Assembly (NCBI GenBank): GCA_045837725.1
Contig: JBEWZL010000232.1
Coordinates: forward strand, 310,001-374,000
Origin: Vermamoeba vermiformis
Lineage: Eukaryota
Length of the DNA: 64,000 nucleotides
Direction: 5' to 3'
Of this stretch, positions 3,701 through 57,074 are shown in pieces. The position numbers and the translations under genes are program-made. Position 1 is the stretch's first letter. Every line of letters starts with the position of its first letter. The notes under the pieces are model-generated. The model ran no database searches, was not told the origin of the DNA, and worked only from the letters and a program-made list of their open reading frames with translations.

Positions 3701-5281
3701 CGCAAGTTAGAGCCCTCGATTGGGTACCGCTTCATTTGCTACTTGATGGAGCGGAATAATGTGTTGCAGGGTGACAGTCACTTGGCCAAATTTGATCTGT
3801 TTGAAAAAGCAGTGACCTCGGAGGGCGAGGTAAGTGTCACATCCATATGGATCCACCCAGCGGAATAATTAATAATCGATTGACTCCATTAGGATAAGGC
3901 CCTAGCACACTTTTTGGCTCAATTAGACAAGCGTAAAGCGGACACAAGTCAACAAAAAGTGACGGCGCTGTTGCCTTATTTGGAACTCCTCAAGCTGAGC
4001 AAATCCAACTCCTCCAGCTGGACACCGCAGTCAATTTTCATCGGAGACTGCAAGACCTGTGCTGAGGCCGATGTCTTGCTCTTCGTGGACCTCGTGCCAC
4101 ATTTGTTCAGATTCGCCGAGCAAGCGCAGATTTCCTTAAAAGGCAATGTGGATTTCATCCAAGCCATCGTGTCCTCCGTGTACCCTGCACAGCTACAACA
4201 CTTGGCGCGGCAATTGATCACCAAAGAAGTGCAGCTGATTGGCGACACGACCAAAGAGTTGCTGCAGTCAGCATCGCAGTCCCTGAGCTGGGACAGTTTT
4301 CAACAGTATTGCTACTGGCAGCTCGTGGAAGCTGAGTGCGGTCATCACCAAGACATGCTCGAAGAAGCATTGCCGCTGTTGCTGGCCAAGATCAATCCGC
4401 TCACGCACTGCGAGGCCATCAGTGGCTTGACGTCAATTTTGCGCAACTTGAACCCGACTGAAGCCATGCTCGGTGCACTGCTCATGACTGCACTGCCCTT
4501 CGCGCCATTTGTCTCGACATTGCTGCACAGTTGGGGCTATCAGCTGGTCGATGAACAGCTCGGCGTCAACAAGATCAATCGCAGCTACGAGTTCTTGGAC
4601 TCACTCGCTCAGATCTTGAGTGGACTAGCCAAGGGCAAGGTCAACACGACACGCACGGTGCTGCGACACGTCACTGTGTGGCGAGCAGTGGACGGTGACA
4701 CGTGTCAAAAAGTGATCTTCAGCAACAAAGGCTTCAAAAAATTGTTCTTGACAGCCATCACGCAGCACAAGTTGGAGAGTGAATTCGACGCGCTGTTCAA
4801 AGTGTGTGCCAGTGACGCTGCGCCAGCGAGTGCCGTGACGAAGAAAGTGAAAGAAGAGAAAGAACACAAAGTGGCGCACAAGAACAACAATGGCACGAGC
4901 ACCAAGAAGGGCACAACGACAGCAGCGAACAGTACAGCCAACAAGAAGAAAGACGACAAACAACAGAAGAACAACAGCACGCGCAAAACTCAACGGGGCC
5001 AAGCATCATCGAGTTCGTCCGAGAGTTCATCTGAAAGTGAATCTGGCTCGGAGTCTGAGAGCGAGGAACAAGACAGTGAAAGCAGCAGCAGCAGTGGGGC
5101 TGATGACTTTCAGACCCCGAAAAAGAAAGTGACAGGTGTCAAACGGCGACGCGTGTCAAGCGAGTCAGCGAGTGACAGCGACAGCAGCGAAGAGAGCAGT
5201 GAAGAAGAGAGACCGACGAAAAAGACTAGCGCTAAAGTAGAGCACAAGAGGAAGAGGCGCAAGGTCGACCACGGCACGTGA
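729..5281 (+). CDS. INTS3: Integrator complex subunit 3 (multi-exon)
   Basis: Motifs LLRQIVTGDLTPKNIWL, IGRDLIRLVQQVA, VKLGNQKRYQQWF, DVVRFICGCWHPPNQILSSDIVQRWVVIGWLL, ALMYDWFFFDP, MNLEPSMLLM, IGYRFICYL, SLSWDSFQQYCYWQL. Pro/Thr-rich linker and Ser/Glu/Lys-rich tail. Confidence 0.88.
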
Positions 5282-8800: not shown

Positions 8801-9999
8801 ATTAAGAAATTTTGTTATATATACCTCCCTTATAATTGCGCGGCTATTGTAAATACTCCTCGACTCTCCCTTGTAATATTTGTAATTAATTTTTGGATTC
8901 ACCCCTTTTATGGAGAAGAATAAAAATAATCTCTAAATAATCGCGTGCAGCCCGTGCTACACATATTATTATAATATACGAACCTAGTATATTATTTTAT
9001 GCCGATTGTCGCTTCGTTTGCGCCGTTTCTAAAGGATCTGATAAAAGATCGCAAAGCCATTCAATTTCGGCACCAGCGCCGTTTGAGAGATTTTAATAAT
9101 GATAGAATATAGGACGATACTAAGGACATATCAGGCCCAGTTTCATAACGGCAGCAAGTCCCGCTTAAATAATGTGAATCACTTTCTTATCGAAATTACT
9201 TAAGGTTTATCGCCCAGTAATCTATTCAATTAATTTTTATTCGTGCAATAGGATAACATATAACTATGCATACGATAAGTGTTTCGGCTGCTTTGTAAGA
9301 TATTTAGCGCGTGCTGTCGCATCTGCATTTTGGCGCGCTTTTAAACAGGTTTACAATTACGTGGTGATTGCAACGAGCAAATGGTACGAGCAATAATTGT
9401 TTTTATTATAATATCAATAATATGAAATTGCATTAGACGTTAATTATAGCAGCTGTGATGGGAGATCAGTTCTAATATTTTTCGTTAAAAATGAAACGCA
9501 TGATCACTTCGATATTATCTATGCATAGATTATGAATATTATACTCACCTATCGGACGTTCTTATTAATAAATATTCAGGTCGGAGCCAAAATCCGCTCA
9601 GGTCAACTTGCAAGTCCGGCCCACAAATTTGTCTGCTCGTCTAGCTCATTAATAGACCCGCTTTAAGGCATTTTCAATCATGCGAATAGTGCAGCGACAG
9701 TTCGTGTTGTGCACGGAGTCAGATTTAGTTGATTATTGCCTGAAAGGTACGCGCAATCGATTCCTTACGATCGAGCACAAAATGCTGCAATATTGTGACA
9801 AAAAGAATACATTTGGCACTGCTTATGTGTTAGTTGAGAAATATAATCGCTGAAAAGTGCGGTAGATCTGCTTGGCATTCGTTGTGGCCAAAGCTGATTT
9901 TTAACCTTTTTTCGTGCGCTGTAGCGTGACAATAGAGGCTTAAAAAAGATCACGTCGCTTAGTTTTAATCAATTTCAATTACCTTTAAACAATACAACC

Positions 10000-11033
10000 A
10001 TGGATTCTCTCAACAAACCTCTTACGACCGCATCTCCCTTGGATAAGCCTCTTTTGCAGAAAGAGCCTTTAAACAAGCCCCTCACTACCCCTAGCGACAC
10101 CCTCTTCGCTGGTCAAAGCAGTGCAGCAGGAGGCATTTCAAATCTGCCTGCCGCTACAGTGACTTACACCGAATCCAAGCTTGAGCCCATTATCACCATC
10201 AAGGAGGTCCCTACGTCTGCTCCCATCCTCTCCTCTTCCCTCACCACTACTACCTCATCGACTCTCTTGCCGGGCGAAAAGAAGCTCCGATCCGAATCTC
10301 CTCAGCTCGATCTAGAACGCGGCTTGAACAAGCCTGTGCTCGGTGAAAAGTCACCCATATTAGGGGGCGAAATAGGCGCCAAGTCCTACGAGCGCAAGTT
10401 GGACACGCACTTGGACCAGAAGCTTGAAGGCCCGTCCTTGTCGCGTCAAGCAGGCTCTGAACAGATGGGCAACAGCGGCGAGACTAAGCGACGGTCACCT
10501 ATCGAGCCCTCGCCTTATCCTACTGCTGTCGGCACGACCACTGTGGGGTTGATGCCAGGTGCTGAAGTCCCTGCAAATCTCGGTGGTAAGTGTTGCAAAT
10601 TTGACACTCGAAATTCTCACGTCGCTAACGAAATTTCAATGATTTAGCGACACCGGTAACCACTGGCTCTAGCTCTAGCGTGTACCCCACTGGCCACTCG
10701 ACTGGCATCGCGACCATCGATGAGCGCGCTCACTCGCCGTCCCGATTGACAACTGTCGCGGAAGATGTCAAAGTGTCAAAACACCACAAGCACCACAAGC
10801 ACTTGCACCACGAAAAGCTCTCGCACGAAGAGAAGAAGAGCCTGAGCAACGAAGAGAAGTACGCCTTGCACGAGCGTGAAGCTGCGCGCGCTGATGTTGA
10901 GGGCAAGGGCGTGAAGGCAGCCGTTGAAGACGTGAAGGCTGGCTATCGCAAGACTGAAGCCGAGACCGAGGTCAAGGAGAGCAAGCATCACAAGCACAAG
11001 CACGGTCACAAGAAGGACAAGACTATTGTTTAA
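10000..11033 (+). CDS. Hypothetical low-complexity hydrophilic protein with His/Lys-rich C-terminus
   Basis: Two long ORFs joined by a GT-AG intron about 10587-10647. Repeated L(N/D)KPL motif. Coding-like codon bias. Confidence 0.7.
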
Positions 11034-11157
11034 GACCTGTCCTCAGTGCTGCACTGTCAGATCCAAGCCCGCGTGAAGTGCACGACACTCACGTGTGACT
11101 GCATCTGACTTGAATTATTTATGAAGTAAAATAAATTAGTTAAGTATTAGTTTTATA

Positions 11158-13933
11158 TTAGCCTCCTATTAATATCATAGGCCTATTTGTTTGTTTGTTC
11201 TTCTCGATCTCGTACATCCCGTCGTGCGAGGCTTTCTTTCGTCGAACAGCAGCACGGACTGTAGTGCGCAGTTCATCGTCGGTAGCGCCTGCTCTAATTT
11301 GATCGCGCAGACTGACTTCATTGGCTCCGAATAGGCACACCTAAAAAAACAAAGCAGATCAGCACAACCTCGGTCAATAGATCGGATCTGGCGCAAAAAA
11401 AAAAGAGAAAGTGATTGCGTATCGCGCAACCTGTGACCAAGAGCACCAGACCTGCACCGCGGCAAATCTAGTGCCCTTAAATCCGAAGTATGTGAACACA
11501 CAACCCTTGGGTTTTTGTTGAAAACAACACGTTTTACGATGAAGCGCGGTTACAGAGCACCTTCTCAGTCTCAAAGATGAATTTCTGCTCACTGAATTGA
11601 CGGCACATCATGACACCCAGAAAATTATGGTTCTGTTGAAAGAAAGTGCGCCGAGGATTCTTGTGTCAATATTGTACTACATACTGCCAATGTACAATAT
11701 TTCGTCAGGCTGTGCATTTGACGCGTCAAAATTTTTTTCGTGGCTTCTCCAGCACCAAATTTTACGACCGAAGCATGGATGTGACCGCGTGTGCACGCTA
11801 AAATACACTTTGTTTTTTCATTCAAAACAAGGAAGTTTAAGAAGCACGATAATCTGTGCGTTGTGGTGTGCTGCAAACACCAAACAATCACTACCCAATT
11901 TGTGCACGGGCCTGATCTAGTAATTTTTTCGGGGACGTAATATTGTACTAATAAAAATTAAAAAAAAGATAGTAGGCCCGGGTGCGAGTTACACGCACAT
12001 CCACTCGAATTATCCTCTTCAAACGTAAATGTTGTTGGAATCACCGAAGTGACAGACGAGGGGGCTATTATTGCCCAACGCAGGCCTACATCCCGTGGAC
12101 AGGCGAACTGAGACTCATTTACCGCTGCATATATCTAACGGTACTTTGTTGTGGTATCAGCGCCACAATTGTCCACAAATAATATGGAGAATTCCAAAAA
12201 GCGGAAAAGAACCGGATGTGCCACCGATGGCGCACGATCAAAAAGTTGTAGTTATAATAAGTTATTACTTACCTTGAGTGAGCCATCAGCCATTAATCTG
12301 AGTCTATTGCACGAGCCACAAAAGTTATTGCTCATGGATGTGATGAATCCGACTTTGCCTCTGAATCCTTTGACGCCATAAGTCTTCGACGTATTATTAG
12401 GCACATCCTAGGTGTATTATAAGTTAATATCATCTATATCAAAGCAGTTTAAGGGGTCAACGTACCGGCAACCGTTCCAGCGGGAATTCTCGTTTGATAA
12501 TGTCAATCATCTCCAAATACGACAAAAACTTCTTATCATTCCATGTATTGCCTTCAAAGGGCATATATTCGATGAATCGGACCTCGATCTGATGCAGAAC
12601 CAGCAGTTAGTAAGTATACGCGTTCGTTCAGCAAGAGGCAGCCATATGGTTGTATAAATACTCGCAATAGATACTTACAGGTTGTTTTTCAGTCCAGCGC
12701 ACAAAGTCCAGTATTTCGCTGTCATTTACACCGCGCATCACCACGCAGTTCACTTTGACTGGATCGTACCTGCAGAACAATCAGAAAATGAGCGTTAGAT
12801 TGCTGCATTATATTTTGATTATGTAATCCATACCCCATCTCTAATGCTAAGTTAATTGATCGCATCACGTGGTCAAATCCGTCGCGGCGAGTAATGAGAG
12901 GAAATTTGAGCGGATCTAATGTGTCTAAACTGATATTTAACAGATTTAAGCCCGCTGCTTTCAATGCTGGTAATTTTCGAGCGAGTACTAGGCCATTAGA
13001 GGTCATGGCTAGTGTTTTAATACCCTCGATCCGACCGAGTTCTTGACAGAGCTCTACAATATCCTTTCTAATCTATAATACCAGCTATTAGAAGTCATAA
13101 TATTATATGTATGTACGTACGGTAGGTTCTCCACCGGTTAATCTAATCTTATCGACTCCTTCTGAAGCAAATAGTTTCGCGATCCGAATTATTTCGGATG
13201 TGGTTAACAGCTGATCATTAGGCGAAAGATCTACGCCCTATCATATAATATTACTACAAATGTTGATAATAGTGCTATCACATTAACGTACCTCTTCGGG
13301 CATACAATATTTACAACGGAGATTGCAGCGCTCAGTGATGGAGATCCGCAAGTAATTGTGATAACGACCAAAAGTATCTGTCAACATATTATCTGATAGC
13401 TTGTCTAGCTTCTATAATAATCGAATAGACAATTAGTACCCCATAAATATTTTCTCTAGAATTTGACAACACAGATCCACTCGATCGAGGTTAAACGACT
13501 TACTTTTAAATCTTGGGTGTCGGTATTAGGTTGTGTACTATTATTGTTTGCATTAGGCAGCTTGATTTGTTGCTTTTGCTTTCCCGCGTCACCCGGAAAC
13601 ACATCCGAAGTGTACGATCGACTCACAGGCTGAATAACCGTTTGAGGTTAATCGAAGATTATTTAAAATTAAATACACTGCACATGAATATGGAGTTGAT
13701 TGAATAATTATGATTGGGAATCTCGAGAGATAATTAATATTCGATTTCTATAAATAACTGAAATTGGAATCAATATTCGGCATTGATTACACGCTGTAAT
13801 AATCGTATAATAATATTATCTATAATATGCTTACCTTGCCGAACCGTTTCGCTGTATTTCGAGAGGAGATCAAGGTATTTTTCAGTTGGGATCCGCAACC
13901 CCTCCGCAGCGCGGTCAAAAATAAATTATTCAT
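11158..13933 (-). CDS. MOCS1: GTP 3',8-cyclase MOCS1A/Cnx2/MoaA (radical SAM)
   Basis: [29 protein letters not shown] (CX3CX2C), [32 protein letters not shown] (CX2CX13C), C-terminal RPMILIGG. Exon 1 (13933-13835, [14 protein letters not shown]...) looks like a mitochondrial presequence. Confidence 0.95.
11395..11566 (-). ncRNA. Structured intronic RNA element B (unclassified)
   Basis: Closing stem GAGAAGGUG/CACUUUCUC (11566-11558 with 11413-11405). 17-bp hairpin 11439-11478 with four G-U pairs valid only on the minus strand. 3' hairpin GUUGCG-CGAUA-CGCAAU, then a U10 tract. Confidence 0.45.
11560..11615 (-). ncRNA. Candidate intronic double-guide box C/D snoRNA (18S rRNA targets)
   Basis: Box C-like AUGAUGU (11611-11605). 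Guide CCGUCAAUUC is antisense to conserved SSU GAAUUGACGG, followed by D'-like GUGA. Guide AUCUUUGAGA is antisense to 18S UCUCAAAGAU, followed by box D CUGA (11568-11565). Confidence 0.55.
11692..11948. repeat. Inverted repeat enclosing a hairpin-rich segment inside the moaA intron
   Basis: GTACAATATTTCGTC (11692-11706) pairs with GACGTAATATTGTAC (11934-11948) at 14/15 positions. Inner stem TCAGGCTGTGCA/TGCACGGGCCTGA. 12-bp direct repeat AATATTGTACTA at 11668 and 11939. Confidence 0.45.
11960..12094 (-). ncRNA. Structured intronic RNA element A (cloverleaf-like, unclassified)
   Basis: Closing stem GUAGGCCUG/CGGGCCUAC (12089-12081 with 11980-11972). Hairpins GGGC-AAUAAUA-GCCC, UCAC-UUCG-GUGA (cUUCGg loop) and GUGCG-UGUAACU-CGCAC, then a U8 tract. 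Confidence 0.45.
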
Positions 13934-20176: not shown

Positions 20177-23100
20177 ATGACAACACCACGCACGAGCGGT
20201 GCATTAGTGGTCACGGACCAAAAGACCAAACAGTTGTTTAGCACTAATTCAGTTGAGGAGATTAGGAAAATCGAACATCAAACGAGGTACGAGCTGCATC
20301 TAGTCAAATTGAATGTTGCGTTGTTTTTGGCTCAGAATTTAATGTGAAATATTCGTATTTAATTTTTACAACATAGAAATGAGATCGAAGTGAAGAAAGA
20401 AGACTTGAGAAAGCTGATCAGGTAATTATTGAAATTTGATATTTTTTTTCTAACACTACTGACGTAATCACATTTATCAGCTCTCGTTATCGCGATTTGA
20501 TTGAATCAGCAGACACCATATTTGAAATTCAACGAGCTGCAGAGGGTTTAGCAAGCAAATTGACATTTATTAAAGATCAATGCGCACACGTCGCAGATTC
20601 AAAGCCAAAAAGCAATGAATTGAGCGAAGGTAATGAATATATTGTGGTATATAATTATTTAACAATATAACAGCTCTGAAACAACAACAAACACGTGCCC
20701 AAGTCGCCAACAAGATCCGCACCCTTATTGAGACTCCTGAACAGGTATAGTTAAATAATTACGTGTAAGAAAATCATTTATGCTAATAAATTCAATATCT
20801 GCGTAGATCTGGACCGCTGTTGAAGACCACGACTATATTTCAGCGACAGTGTTGTACCTCACAGCGAAGCAGATCTACACTGACCTCACAACCTCTGAGG
20901 ACGAAGAGACTAAAAAGACTTTGGTAAGACTCTTGGACAGGACTTAATGCACGATAAGACTCACTCTTAATATAGAAATCATCACCAATTGTGGAGGAGC
21001 AATGGCGAGGTTTGCAACAGTTTCCAAAACGAATTCTTCGATTCAGCAAAAACAGATTAAAGTCCAGTCAATTGACTGAGAAGGTAGTGTCTATGTGAAT
21101 GATATGATAGCATAACGGTACTAATAGTGTTGTTACTAGGAACACGCAGGTGCACTCGTGTCGATCATGAAGCTCGAGGCCCGCACACCGATGCAAGTGT
21201 TGATGGACTTTTTGAGCGCACGTCGCACAGCACTAGAACAGATTGTTGATAAACTGCGCGACTGTGCAACGCGAACAGATTTGACAGATGTCACTAGAAG
21301 CGATGAAGTTGTGCGGCTGATCTGCTCTTTCTGTCGGTACGTACTAGGCTTGCATATTATACTGTGGCACATAGGGTTTTAACAAAGACTGCTTAGTTCG
21401 TTACAACTGACGGTCTATTTAATTGGCGCAATATTCTTGCCGGACTCGTTCAAGATTGCAGCCCTTGAAATAGCGCACAACAAGATCAGTCCCAGACCTG
21501 CTGAGACACCGCGTGACAAGCCGTTGATTTACGCACTGTTGGATGAAGTGTCTGAACGTATCGAAGGTACAATAATAACGGAATCACGTGCCTTCAGGTC
21601 GCTAATCCACCTCATGCTAGGCAAACAAGTCGAGTACAGCATGATTGCTGCAGCCAATGTGCAGAGTCTGTGCTACGAGTGGATCAAAAAGAACACTAAA
21701 ATGTTGCACGAAGGAGCGTTCAGTGCTGTTGTCACCGCGAAAGAGTTGACAGCGATTGAAACAGCGGTCATCAAACAAATCAGAAATCCATTCGTTAATA
21801 TCAACAAGTAAGTCAAACATATTATCTAGTATGCGAGGTACTAATATGGATCTATTAGGGAGGAGATGATTTTGGATCTGAAGGCCTCACAAGAGTTGCC
21901 TGCTTGGGACTCGGTAAGTTTATTATGGTAAAACTTTTCATTATTTTTTCATTAATTCTTGTTATAGATCGCAATGACAGTCACCAATCACTCGATTGAC
22001 TTGTGGGAGACATTCTTCCGTCACGCGTTCAACGACGCAGCACAACGCATCATCACGCTGTACTTTGAACAGGTGGATCTGGTCTCGAAGATTGAACACT
22101 CGTTAGCTGAGATTGCTGGTGATCGCACCAAAGGATTCGTGCCTGAAGGTAAGATAGCTCAAAACTAAGTAAAGAGCGTTCGATTCACTGACACATTGGC
22201 CGCAGAACATAATGTCTCAGAGTTCGTGTGGACTACAGTCTCAGAGGCATCAACAATCAACACGCGCAAGTTGACCAGTCGCGTTGTCGTGCCTCGAACG
22301 AACACTGTTCAACGTGCATTTGAGTCGCAGTTGAATCGTGTCATTGAGGACTTGAGCTCGTTGATCGAGCCCAAGGATAAAACCGCCGTCTTTCACAGCA
22401 GCAAATTCCAGTAAGTTCTGACCCATGCATTACGACTCTTTGCTAAACAAGTGCTATTAGGGACGTGCAAGGTCTTCGTGCATTTATTCGTCAATCGTGC
22501 ATGACCAAAGTCTCCAAGCTGATGCAAGAAATTGACACGCGCATTGAACAGTTCAGTCAACAAGTTCAACAAGACAACTCTGACTGGCTCACTAGCATTG
22601 CGACTCCAGTCGACTATTGCTTGTTCATTGGTCACACATTGCGCGTCATTGCCTCGTACTCGACACAACTTCAGACCATCTTAGCTGACTCAGTGGACAG
22701 CGCTCGATTGGCAGGACAATTGCACACTCAGATCAGTCCCTCGACCTTGTACATTCAAACCAAGAAAGTCATCGAGAAGACAGCAGCCAATGCATTCCAT
22801 GTCTGGGTGCAATGGCTGGTACGACAACTTGTGCTGCACGAGGGCAGATTTGCAGCTGACCCTAACGAGCTCGGAAGCGGCTCCTTGTTGACTCCTCACC
22901 TCGTGCCCGTAGCTGCCGTGAAGAAGTCGTGGATGGAAATTAAGATCAAGGCCGAGAGCGGCGCTGACACTGAAGAGTTTGTGCCACATCAACCTTCATC
23001 AGCTGTCAACAGCTTCTTGTTGTTTTTGGTCGAAGAGTTGAATCGTGTTGGCGCTCATGTCCTCAACAAGGTAAGAGCTACATCCATATATTAATATGAC

Positions 23101-35318: not shown

Positions 35319-36905
35319 TTAGTTCGTGGCGCTGATGCTGGCAGCTTGCGGATTTGCATAGCCCCCAACGAAATCGTTCGCACCGGACTCGAAGTCGTGC
35401 AATGGCTGGCTTGCAAGGGTTTCATCGAACGAAGTAAGTTGAACAGTACTTTGGGACAAGTCCTCGAAAGTTACGCCAAGCGGGTCGTCCTCGAAGGGCT
35501 GTGCATCTGCAGCAGGGACTTGAGCCGCGCAATAGTATTGCGTAGTGCCCAGTGTTGCAGTGTATCCTTGCTGGCTTGTGTCGTTGTTAATCGCTTGAAT
35601 ACCTTCGAGCAGTGTTTGTGTCGCAGGAGACTGCTGCACGTGCATGGTCGAGTGTTGAGTCGACCAGAGCTGATTGGCTGAATAGTCCTGAGAGGCAGGC
35701 ACTTGAGCCAAGGTCTGCTCGTATTGCATTGATGGAATGACATTAAAATCATCGCTTTGTGCGAGATTCACCACGACACGAGCTGCAGATCCGCGACTCT
35801 CCAACCAACTATTGAAGTCAAGCACCTCGTAGAGTGGCATGTACGGGTAAATTTCTTGGTAGAACTGCTTGGGGTCTGTTTCGAGAAGGTATTGTACATT
35901 CGCGAACCAATCCTCGAGGGTCGGCATTGAGGCTGCAGGGACGTTCACTTCAGGCTCTTGTTGTGTTGGTTGATCCTCTTGAATAGGCGCAAATGCCATT
36001 CCTTCATGAGGAGTGGTTTCGACACCAACACGCAATGACTTGTGCGGGCCATGTCCAACCACTCCTTCGTCACTCGGCTCCTCGCTCCAGTCGCACTCGC
36101 TGACACGACGCTTCTTTTGCGGTGACTTCTTTTGCTTCATGAACTCGTGGAACTTGACGTCGTTGAGCAGAGGTCTGAAGGGCTGGTTCTTCGTGTCAAT
36201 GATTTGCACGTACTCGTCGCTGATGATGACGCGGTAGTACTTGACAACGCTGCGTGGCAAGTCCTTTGTCATGCGCTCGGCAATGTCGCTGGCAGTCAAT
36301 TCATGGTTCTTTTTCAACTTCTCCTCTTTCATCTTCTGGTCCACCAACGTGTTCTTTGGCTTCTTAACGGGCTTGCTTTTCTTTTTGGCCTTGACAGTCT
36401 TCTTCGTGTCGTTGGGATCGGATTCGACCTTTCTCCCTTTAGTGCTTTGAATGCGAAGACAAGACATCACAAATAGAATTGTGTAGTATTGTTGCGGCGT
36501 AAGCATGATGGTGTACCTAGGTTTAAGCTCGTTAGATGCTGAGATCGCAGAACTTTTTAATTCTTGTAAGACTTACTGGACCTTATCCTCCGAAACAAAC
36601 AAAAAGGCTAGCTTGATTGAGCGACCTTTATCTTCTTTCATATGTTTGGGGCCATTTTGACTTACAAGCCAGATGTGGTTGAAAATGTCTGCAATCCGTT
36701 CCTTAATCAGCTCCCAGCTTACTTGAGCGACGACATCGGGATAGTGGAGCTCGCACTCATCGAAGAGCTCCTTCAAGAATTGAAGAACTTCTTCTGAAGT
36801 GGCCTCAGGGAGCTTGGGTTTCTGGACGATCTTAAAGGTGCGGATGCCATTCGAGAGACTCTTCTTCGTCTGGGCTTGATTGACCACGAGTGGTTTACTA
36901 AACAT
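35319..36905 (-). CDS. Unknown family, paralog C
   Basis: Two exons, phase-2 intron 36576-36517. VSWELIKERIADIFNHIWLVS..GPKHMKEDKGRSIKLA, FVMSCLRIQSTKGRK. Confidence 0.78.
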
Positions 36906-37549
36906 TTTGTTTGTTAATAATGACCTTCTATCGTGCAAAAAGCTAGGTTTTTAGCCATTCTTTTGACCGCGGACACCAACGAGTCAAACTTTTTTCTTGT
37001 CCGTCTATGGACTAAAGGGCAGGGACAATTGGCCACACTTACCAAAAGATTTTTAGTGCGATATTTACTCCAGATTTCACTTGCAAAATGCGATCCAAGC
37101 GAGATTGACCAACAGTCAACCAGACAACCCGATCAGTGTACGCAGAGCTAAACAATTGATGAGTACAAATTTAAATATAATCCTTATTTTGCTTTTGCAT
37201 TACCTAGAGTCTTATTAGACATTATGAGGTCAAGATTTGCTAAAATCCGGATTTCTTTTTGGAATCTCTTTGTCTGTTTTCAATTCTACACAGCTATTAA
37301 TAATTATTTTAGTTTTAACTTGTTGAGTGTAATTACTCACGAAGAGCCGTGGTTCAATTTTGGCACCACCTCCAAATAAATCTGCTTGACAACCAAAAGA
37401 TTCTGCATTGGGCAACTTATTGATACGAAAAGGTTGTCTGCATGATAGCGGTGAGATGCGTGTTGTGCATTACTAATAAGAAGTGCAAGAAAACTGAAAA
37501 CAAAACAATTTTCGTTATTCAATTGTCGAACAAACATAGATCAGCATGG

Positions 37550-54858: not shown

Positions 54859-57074
54859 TTAAATCAAAATAGCTAAAGCCATCATCAAACCAACACTAAC
54901 AGTACCCAAGGCAGCAGATGAGATACGTGCAGGGGTTCTTGACGGAGTTCTCGTCGGGGCAGCGAGAGGTGCAACAGGAGGCATCGGAGTTCTGTAATCA
55001 AAGTCCACAGCACGGACCAGCATGAAGCCTCTGTTGGTGTCGTTGACAATGCCGACAGCAAAGTACGACACGACAGTATCTGCGTCATCGTACAACGTGC
55101 CGTTGATAAGTGTAGCGCCGCCTTTGGTAGCAATGCGTGTTGCCAGTGGATTGCTGGCATTGACAGATGTGTAGCCGAACACTTCTGGATAGATGAGCGA
55201 AGCGACTGTCTGGCCATCGATGTCAAGCGTGACTTCGGGAGAGGTCGCGGAAGCATGGACTCCTCGAATGTAAGCAGTGCCTGCTGCAGGTTTGACAAAG
55301 TTATCGTTCAATTGCATGATTCTGGGGCTCAGAGCTCCGCCAATAAGTGCCGTGACGAAATTGCCAGCGTTAACGCGGATCGGACTGCGGAACAACTCTG
55401 TGTCGTCTGGGGCTGAGTGCACGCTCACTCGGTAGAGACCGGGAAGTACTTCTCCATAAACTGTGAAGTTCGTGTAGCTCATGTTTTGCACGAAGGGAGT
55501 GCCATCGATTTTGACGTTAACTGTAGGACCACCAAATGTAGCTAGGGCGTGGAAGGCACGCAAAGCTCCTGCACTTCCATATAAGGCATCGACACTCGGG
55601 AAAACAGTGAAAGTGGTGATTCCGTCTGAGTTCGGTAAACCTGCAGCAACTATAGTAATGACAGCCCCCGCGGGAATTTCCAACTGTGTTTGAAGAATGC
55701 GCGTCTGCGTGCCAGCAGCGTTGATAACGCCCGTGTAAGACCCAGCGGGAAGTTCAGCATAGCCACTTGCGAGGCCATAGGCAAGGTACGTAACCATGGC
55801 TACTCCGTTCACATAAACATCGACGGCGGAGGAGGTGGCTCCTGCGTGCATGATGCGCACACGAGAAGTTCCGTTCGTTGGCGCAGTGTTTCTGTCATAA
55901 ACAAGACGGCCCACGGGAACGGATCCGGTTTCGACAGGCACTGCGAACAACGTGGATTCAGTGAAGCCGTTCAGGAAAGCAGTGACGGAGATTATAACAG
56001 TGTTCTCAACTGCAACCGCGAGATCGTGAGCTCCCGCTGGAATGTTGAGGTAGTTTGTGATGTTCGTATACCTGCGGTAAAAGTAACAATTAGTTCGAGG
56101 ACTACAACGAAAACTACTGTCACATATAAAGTATGATATTATTATTCTATGGCGGGATTGTCCAAGCCAACCAAACTAAGGATCCACTTTCATCCGTAAC
56201 AGCATTTTTTCCGGATTTCAAAAATTTTAGGGGCAGAGTAAATTATTAAAGTTTACCTGATATTTCTGAAGAGATAGAAAAGGCTATCAGCAACGACGTT
56301 TACGACGAATTCCGCGGGAACAGCGTGTACAAAAGCCAAACGGGTTTCGATGGAGTAGTCGGTGAGTTCGTAGACGGCAATGTTTGGCAGTGGTCCTGCA
56401 GCGTCATTGCGACCGACAATAAGAACCAAATAACTTTTGAGGCTTTCGAACGTAACGGATTTGGAGATGTCGGGTGGGCTTGACGAACCGGCATTTCTTA
56501 CGTTAACAAATCCAGTTCCAGCGGTGCCTAAAGTAGGTGCAGATACGTTTGCATAGTCCAAGTTGTTAGCCAACGAAGTGAGTTCGGTTCCGGTTCCTAC
56601 ATCCACGTTACCAACACCAAAAGCGACGTGACTGACGGTAACGCGCGCCTGACCCGGGTCAAGTGGACTAACATTGTCGGCAATGCTACCCAACTGAACG
56701 CCTAAGTTGCTGAAGGCTACCAAAACGTAGGAAAGTTGGCTCACGACGAGAGTACCGTTTGTGTAAACGTCCGTGCCTCCAGCAGGCTTGACTTGGAAGT
56801 CGTATGAGTCATAGATAAGATAAAACCATTCGCTGGCATCCTACAATATTAGTTTAGATTCAAGTTTTGGTCACAAAGTCTAGATGCATCTTACCAAGTA
56901 CTTGATATTCCGCAAAGAATATGCGACGAAGCCGTCCTTTAAGAAGTATACGTCGAATGCAGTATCAGTATTAAAAGGATAGGCGTTGATAACCTTGATG
57001 CGACCGAAACTTTGGGCGAATACGGTTGCAGCGCCTATAATCAAGAACAAAGTCACCAAAAGAGTTCGGCTCAT
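54859..57074 (-). CDS. Multi-DUF4397 surface protein (signal peptide, GPI/TM tail)
   Basis: Repeated R.R..HA....VDVYV.G......L.Y...SGY..LPAG.Y units. Signal peptide MSRTLLVTLFLIIGAATVFA. Two introns. Confidence 0.82.

Follow-up and report, generated by a model that had tools for sequence, protein, structure and literature searches.

Why should the last intron of a moaA/MOCS1A gene span 932 nucleotides (nt) when the remaining introns of the same gene measure ~48–200 nt? The question is raised by a 64,000-nt stretch of Vermamoeba vermiformis DNA (GenBank assembly GCA_045837725.1, contig JBEWZL010000232.1, positions 310,001 to 374,000), referred to here as the window and numbered from its first letter, which carries the gene on its minus strand. 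A sequence-only reading of the window had noticed an intron of about 930 nt among introns of typically 45–200 nt, and had proposed either a cluster of intronic noncoding RNAs or a cis-regulatory structure controlling the splicing of a molybdenum cofactor (Moco) enzyme. The first of these proposals has held up. The intron probably owes its size to two independent small-RNA genes, A (~120 nt) and B (~162 nt), that lie within it on the sense strand, each with Pol III-type (RNA polymerase III) transcription of its own. Supporting this reading are homologues of A and B elsewhere, compensatory changes in their helices, an upstream box at a fixed distance, oligo-T after each RNA, and RNA-seq reads of the A type. 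Coordinates of all features are collected in Table 1.

As judged from a protein alignment, the last moaA intron is genuine and oversized. A 405-aa metagenome protein (P0002), whose largest exon is 97% identical to the window, is encoded on a contig of only 1250 nt and is therefore cDNA-like. Aligned to the window with tblastn, this protein gives eight coding blocks on the minus strand, forming a eukaryotic MoaA/MOCS1A, and its residues K345|V346 map to 12273|11340, reading straight across the 932-nt gap; since a cDNA-like sequence aligns across both of its borders, the intron is taken to be real. The break falls where the sequence-only reading had placed it, within the CX2CX13C cluster motif, with CGSC...K in exon 7, VC...ILIGG and the stop codon in the last exon, and the interruption just before the third Cys. 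No long open reading frame with a family match explains the intron, which matches nothing else within the 64-kb window, and no tRNA was found (ARAGORN).

Homologues of A and B occur in genomic contexts unrelated to moaA. When a 25-nt motif of A, unique in the window, was used to scan metagenome contigs, three were returned (L001, L002, and L003). L001 and L002, which are 99.9% alike, reproduce the order and orientation of the window, with a complete A and, behind it, a complete B that are 86% and 67% identical to the window copies, respectively. The A+B pair of L001 lies between the stop codon (843) of a plus-strand gene, which when read by eye looks NUDIX/Dcp2-like, and the end (~1776) of a convergent gene containing an RNA recognition motif (RRM). 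L003, which shares its metagenome of origin with L001, has A without B. This copy is 95.7% identical to that of L001 and occupies a sense intron (346 nt) of a gene resembling acyl-CoA oxidase; because the exons of this host are short, its matches to Acyl-CoA_ox_N (24.0 bits, cut-off 25) and Acyl-CoA_dh_M (22.1 bits, cut-off 33.3) both remain below the Pfam cut-offs. The L001 and L003 loci can be aligned only from position −1 onward. The 5′ module of A had no match in prokaryote genome contigs or viral contigs, nor did the 3′ module of B in viral contigs.

Because these homologues stand beside or within unrelated genes, a link of A and B to moaA or to Moco is not conserved. This bears directly on the second proposal of the sequence-only reading, in which the structured intron would act in cis, either as a riboswitch-like sensor of Moco, molybdopterin, or GTP or as a regulator of moaA splicing. 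The host gene belongs to the Moco pathway, the intron separates essential C-terminal residues from the rest, and B has strong local structure, all of which is consistent with such a role. It is nonetheless very improbable, being contradicted by the non-moaA contexts as we assign them (acyl-CoA oxidase-like, RRM-containing, and NUDIX-looking genes). In addition, no riboswitch model (Moco, thiamine pyrophosphate [TPP], or any other) matches isolated A or B with the E cut-off relaxed to 10, neither element reaches a splice site, the distance being at least 54 nt in every case, and each is accompanied by a box and a T run of its own.

The structure of A was derived from folds and from an alignment of four copies, of which three differ by more than a single base. 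Six pairs of the closing stem are present in the four-copy consensus; the 9-bp form, GUAGGCCUG/CGGGCCUAC, holds in the window and in L003 and is interrupted by a C·A mismatch in L001 and L002. The stem encloses an extended hairpin whose loop reads AAUAAUA, a second hairpin of the cUUCGg type, a central hairpin that varies among copies, and a 3′ hairpin consisting of a GUGCG/CGCAC stem and a UGUAACU loop. Variation is concentrated in the center (12041–12012), and both ends are nearly invariant. Of the 27 consensus pairs given by RNAalifold, one shows a compensatory change, being C-G in the window and U-A in the other three copies, and another alternates between G·U and A-U. A search of the window with a covariance model of A brought up no second copy: the highest-scoring other match (16 bits, E = 0.11; 36829–36928, minus strand) is probably due to chance, and a 10-bit match inside the spacer between the two genes (11777–11891) is not significant.

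In element B, a 9-bp stem (GAGAAGGUG/CACUUUCUC) closes a structure that comprises conserved blocks, a long hairpin of 17 bp (11478–11439), and a UGCG/CGCA hairpin on the 3′ side. In a pair-by-pair comparison of the 17-bp hairpin between the window and L001, nine pairs are identical, five differ by a one-sided change, three differ by a double change, and none is broken. Four of the 17 pairs in the window, and five of 17 in L001, would become A·C on the antisense strand, in agreement with the earlier claim that the G-U pairs and the cUUCGg tetraloop fit only the moaA sense strand. The architecture proposed as common to both elements is likewise borne out: a 9-bp closing stem, a 3′-proximal GCG/CGC hairpin, and then T8 or T10. 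The motifs UGUAAC and ACUUCGG are invariant and common to A and B, and there are sequence hints that the two may be of common ancestry. The arms of the long hairpin in the L001 copy of B (1469–1635; 5′ arm UAGGCUUG, 3′ arm CGGGUCUG) resemble the two strands of the A closing stem. Pairing between A and B was considered and set aside, as the RNAduplex predictions (−77 and −50 kcal/mol) are whole-molecule duplexes with large loops that ignore internal folds, and nothing was drawn from them; the sole predicted contact common to both species is a 6-bp UAGGCC/GGUCUG pairing.

Folding energies were compared with those of dinucleotide shuffles, both for the elements and for 21 sliding 120-nt windows across the intron. 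With its exact borders, B folds far better than its shuffles (z −5.24 sense, −5.27 antisense), as does its L001 copy (z −3.82). The result for A alone is modest (z −2.43), with five of 200 shuffles folding equally well. Among the sliding windows on the sense strand, only those covering 11552–11393 (z −4.5 and −4.8) and 12272–12153 (z −2.5) beat the shuffles, and the other 18 gave z between −1.1 and +1.4; the entire intron scored −2.48 sense and −3.89 antisense (20 shuffles each). The statement of the sequence-only reading that hairpins run along almost the whole intron is thus not confirmed as something beyond chance, such structure being confined to a few windows, and its folding test comes out strongly for B, modestly for A, and negative for the rest of the intron.

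Sequences from a close relative separate B from the spacer in another way. Its contigs (X5) supply pieces corresponding to 11219–11407 (no difference), 12226–12382, and 11490–11905, the last with 23 other letters and 15 gap letters relative to the window. Among the differences listed, B together with its upstream region accounts for three over 144 nt, and the spacer for 25 events over 272 nt (Fisher p = 0.006; 0.044 if two unlisted differences are also placed in B), from which it follows that B is constrained while the spacer drifts. A further reading is that of neutral intron filler, in which the hairpins would have arisen by chance or from a decayed DNA transposon. Most of the intron does fold like shuffled sequence, the z-score of the entire intron does not favor the sense strand over the antisense strand, and the spacer evolves fast. 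That description fits the spacer only, because A and B retain 86% and 67% identity between organisms with flanks too diverged to align, and show compensatory changes. For A and B, filler is on this comparative evidence already refuted, and for the locus as a whole we give it hardly any credence.

Each copy of A and B is flanked by the same pair of signals. A box of consensus NACCAYAAYN starts 66–68 nt before the first G in all five genes compared (A of the window, L001, and L003; B of the window and L001), and the upstream sequence around the box has otherwise diverged among the five. Oligo-T occurs within 0–5 nt of the end of every copy: T8, T9, T9, and T11 after A, T10 after B of the window, and T4 plus T7 after B of L001. 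Such runs are scarce, with just 12 runs of at least eight T in 128 kb of strand, the sole run of at least ten being that following B. The box 10-mer, with one mismatch allowed, is not enriched window-wide (22 matches vs. 15.2 expected). Two other exact matches, at 20640–20649 and 21921–21930 (both minus strand), are followed by nothing like A or B, and the sequence downstream of them reads by eye as exon and intron of plus-strand genes. Around the box of A there is an inverted repeat, TTGTGG...CCACAA (window 12175–12144, L001 1035–1069), in whose 3′ arm the box sits, and a similar repeat precedes the box of B in L001 (1365–1390), formed by CCACAAAT and ATTTGTGG; these repeats may represent a two-sided binding site. 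A box C/D reading of 11612–11567, upstream of B (AUGAUGU...CUGA), was rejected because the pair is absent in L001.

Taken as small-RNA genes, A and B would each be transcribed separately from an external promoter whose recognizable part is the NACCAYAAYN box, and transcription would stop at the oligo-T just after the RNA, a signature of Pol III with an upstream element of the small nuclear RNA (snRNA) or Dictyostelium upstream sequence element (DUSE) type. The ends of the transcript would pair in the closing stem, the U tail would be trimmed to the stem, and a fraction of the RNA would be polyadenylated. The products are probably protein-bound structured RNAs, serving as scaffolds of ribonucleoproteins (RNPs). 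Nothing in this scheme would tie them specifically to Moco synthesis, and the moaA intron would be the mere site of this copy of the cassette.

The same flanking signals bear on whether A and B are instead stable RNAs cut from host RNA polymerase II (Pol II) transcripts, in the manner of intronic small nucleolar RNAs (snoRNAs) or stable intronic RNAs, with the terminal stems acting as protection and the box as a processing or assembly signal. All three independent A loci have the orientation of the host or upstream gene, two of the three are intronic, and the RNA ends at the base of the closing stem, as such processing would have it. The cassette of L001/L002, by contrast, lies past a stop codon between convergent genes with no recognizable intron, and processing from the host would leave the conserved oligo-T after each RNA without a role. 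Nor is there a sign of a snoRNA: no terminal C box (RUGAUGA) or D box (CUGA) and no H/ACA feature (hinge ANANNA, with ACA 3 nt before the 3′ terminus) was found within any copy of A or B, the AUGAUGU...CUGA pair upstream of B is absent in L001, and no Rfam snoRNA model matches. We regard host-dependent processing as distinctly unlikely.

Expression was assessed in three RNA-seq runs (X21, X22, and X23) that share one species label and place 55, 44, and 34 reads on the stretch, most of them as partial fits. The reads differ from the window at ~6–8 sites per 100 nt of coding exon (11152–11304 and 12273–12351), including six sites in ~100 nt of the last exon, and their source is therefore another strain or a close species; the species label spans clearly diverged lineages or gene copies. 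In all three runs, reads pile up on 11970–12011 (summed depth 30.8, 24.2, and 15.5), whereas depth over the coding exons of moaA is at most 4. Poly(A) in the minus sense starts directly beyond 11970 in 20, 13, and 20 reads, with a median length of 99, 86, and 85 letters, respectively. Upstream of 12011 the reads diverge from the window and fit again over 12042–12089. Four X21 reads join 11970 straight to 12089 (head to tail, going back 120 nt), which delimits a 120-nt unit identical in extent to the stem-to-stem RNA predicted for A. Five X21 reads pass through the T run into a flank unlike that of the window. Two reads (X21/X22) show 17 A followed by a 5′-shortened A unit, and some reads fold back on themselves; template switching or other library artifacts, tandem copies, or circles are possible explanations of the head-to-tail and 17-A joints. 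The reads of the A type are polymorphic at 11978, at 11991, and at an insertion at 11984 (frequency 15–65%), and so several copies of A are expressed. In our reading, an A-type RNA with its ends at the predicted 120-nt unit is expressed in a related strain, and a fraction of it is polyadenylated. We infer that the window copies of A and B would be expressed as well.

Polyadenylation and multiplicity are also what would be expected if A, and perhaps B, were a retroposon family resembling short interspersed nuclear elements (SINEs) and derived from a small Pol III RNA, the genomic copies being insertions and the poly(A) reads transcripts of the element. Poly(A) directly after the A unit, the read class with 17 A before a 5′-shortened unit, the at least three polymorphic sites, which point to several expressed copies, and the presence of A in at least three unrelated genomic contexts all fit. 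The genomic copies do not behave like insertions: none of the four has an A-rich tail, all are full length with a T run instead, and no target-site duplication or terminal or flanking direct repeat was seen at them. A retro-copy would be expected to lack the upstream box, which stands at the same distance in every context. The A+B pair has been kept together across species, the 64-kb window has no second copy (best other covariance-model match 16 bits, E = 0.11), and an internal box A/box B promoter is not evident. A SINE-like origin is thus unlikely, though the poly(A) and the multiple copies of A still count in its favor. Of the multi-copy transposon family against which the sequence-only reading had warned, the multi-copy part applies to A, given at least two contexts in one metagenome and variant reads, and the marks of a transposon are missing.

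Several observations weigh against A and B being independent Pol III genes and keep our confidence short of firm. The five upstream regions, inspected by eye, have no consistent TATA-like element at approximately −30; A/T-rich hexamers occur at differing distances, with no common position, and a classical type-3 Pol III promoter is therefore not established. The folding z-score of A itself is modest (−2.4), and the covariation is based on only two to four distinct sequences. The shared orientation of the three A loci with their host or upstream genes (n = 3) is equally predicted by host-dependent processing. No reads cover 12012–12041, where the A-type reads carry another central segment than the window copy; because of this segment they must come from paralogues or a diverged orthologue and are not evidence for the window copy. 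The conserved ends of B are represented by only one or two reads per run, explicable as pre-mRNA. Finally, long poly(A) (median 85–99 nt) and the 17-A joint are atypical of Pol III RNAs and resemble retroposon transcripts.

Table 1. Features of the 3′ part of the moaA/MOCS1A gene in the window
Feature	Position	Strand	Basis or remark
Element A, predicted mature RNA of 120 nt	11970..12089	−	Folds, four-copy alignment, RNAalifold, and RNA-read ends
Upstream box of A, TACCACAACA, starting at −67; putative promoter element resembling a proximal sequence element (PSE) or DUSE	12147..12156	−	Same box at −66 in L001 and −68 in L003
T8 run 2 nt beyond A; putative Pol III terminator	11960..11967	−	T9, T9, and T11 in homologues
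Element B, predicted RNA of 162 nt	11405..11566	−	Folds, alignment, and pair-by-pair comparison with L001
Upstream box of B, AACCATAATT, starting at −66	11623..11632	−	TACCATAATA at the same distance in L001
T10 run directly after B	11395..11404	−	Sole run of at least ten T on either strand of the window
Spacer from A to the box of B	11633..11959	−	Not alignable with L001; folds no better than shuffles
Last moaA/MOCS1A intron	11341..12272	−	932 nt, GTAAGT...TTTTTAG; sequence and tblastn of P0002
Penultimate moaA exon (exon 7)	12273..12407	−	Carries CGSC...K; sequence and tblastn of P0002
Final moaA exon	11158..11340	−	VCLFGANE...PMILIGG and stop

For one MoaA exon used as a query, the best three metagenome or assembly proteins are 97%, 78%, and 75% identical; in the 120 matches listed, the nearest named relatives are from corals (72–73%), with plants at 58–64% and one fungal match at 62%. 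A convergent plus-strand gene (9925–11030) ends ~130 nt from the moaA stop codon; its product has a His/Lys/Glu-rich C terminus, looks like a hydrophilic stress protein, and has only a subthreshold Pfam match (FAM199X, E = 0.0034). Farther away, plus-strand frames encode Ints3_N (1430–1951, E = 1.8e-45) and an Ints3-like C-terminal HEAT domain (3893–5281, E = 1e-23), and the organism therefore has Integrator subunit 3, which argues against a dikaryan fungus. A search with the Ints3 exon gave no match, and an orphan open reading frame gave one. Two adjacent minus-strand frames (54862–56175 and 56256–56840) contain DUF4397 domains (E = 1.3e-37 and 2.4e-12), a family that is mostly bacterial; they may represent a transferred or a lineage-specific gene.

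If A and B are indeed separate Pol III genes, an odd gene structure (932 nt among introns of 48–200 nt) is explained and a tempting riboswitch reading is removed, and two conserved structured small RNAs outside all Rfam models are added. A DUSE-type promoter, so far described for dictyostelids, would then be older and more widespread, and a box that is a true relative of the DUSE would bear on the age of SNAPc-type upstream elements. The candidate box and terminator could be used to find other small-RNA genes of the organism, and sense-oriented Pol III units within an intron of a Pol II gene would offer a natural case for the study of transcriptional interference.

No Rfam family accounts for A or B. 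The covariance-model scan suggested earlier (Rfam 15, whose scope included the Moco RNA motif, TPP riboswitch, snRNAs, signal recognition particle [SRP] RNA, 7SK, Y, vault, RNase P/MRP, snoRNAs, and Dictyostelium Class I RNAs) recognized neither element, with no match to the 64-kb window at the gathering threshold. At E up to 10, the region 11200–12400 had only three weak, unrelated matches, A alone none, and B alone two matches to microRNA models (13.6–14.5 bits); the L001–L003 loci had one chance match. Six 16–18-nt strings of A and B were not found in a full-text literature search. By-eye comparison with features of tRNA-Sec, the SRP Alu domain (UGUAAC motif), U6atac, U11/U12, 7SK, and ciliate and plant telomerase RNA produced no fit, and Rfam gave these candidates no support. 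The Moco RNA motif and the intronic TPP riboswitches are alike to A and B in being structured RNA inside a gene of a cofactor pathway; unlike them, A and B match no model, have no conserved tie to the pathway, and possess a promoter-like box and a terminator-like run.

The closest resemblance is to the small-RNA genes of dictyostelids. There, the DUSE has the form [AT]CCCA[AT]AA and lies ~63 bp (60–63 nt) upstream of many noncoding RNA genes (PMC3188802). A second account describes two-C forms of the element in some dictyostelids, T runs downstream of many Class I genes, and Class I RNAs of 42–65 nt with a conserved 11-nt motif (PMC7919456). The NACCAYAAYN box at −66 to −68 is reminiscent of the DUSE at ~60–63 nt, and a DUSE-type box is present in all five genes if the dictyostelid consensus is taken as the standard, a promoter role of the box being putative. 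Also alike are 5′ and 3′ ends paired in a stem, downstream T runs, and membership in multi-copy families whose ends are conserved and whose middle varies. In contrast to Class I RNAs, A and B are 120 and 162 nt long rather than 42–65 nt, neither has the 11-nt motif, which in Class I RNAs adjoins the 5′ strand of a short terminal stem, and neither has an Rfam match.

Type-3 Pol III genes (U6, 7SK, Y RNA, and RNase MRP) have a proximal element at about −55 to −65, a purine start, an oligo-T terminator, and small structured RNA products, and Y RNAs have in addition a 5′/3′ closing stem and clustered genes. The vertebrate-type members resemble A and B in these features (upstream element, purine start, oligo-T, and a small structured RNA, with the closing stem and clustering of Y RNA), and the oligo-T terminator typical of type-3 genes is found at all copies of A and B. 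They differ in that A and B have no consistent TATA-like box near −30 and no Rfam match. Vault RNAs are Pol III transcripts of ~100–140 nt with several paralogues, in which the conserved terminal parts pair with each other and enclose a variable center. They have a central domain, and their genes use an internal box A and box B (PMC7904556). Element A, read from its sequence, shows no box A and, of box B, just a TTCGAG core; alike are the size range of A, its paired conserved ends, its variable center, and the several paralogues. Tentatively, and with appreciably less confidence than in the nested genes themselves, A and B may be viewed as two new small-RNA families forming a conserved two-gene cassette in an under-sampled eukaryotic lineage, transcribed by Pol III from a DUSE-like box, with A, given its paired ends, variable center, several paralogues, and polyadenylated fraction, as the counterpart there of the vault- or Y-type RNP RNAs.

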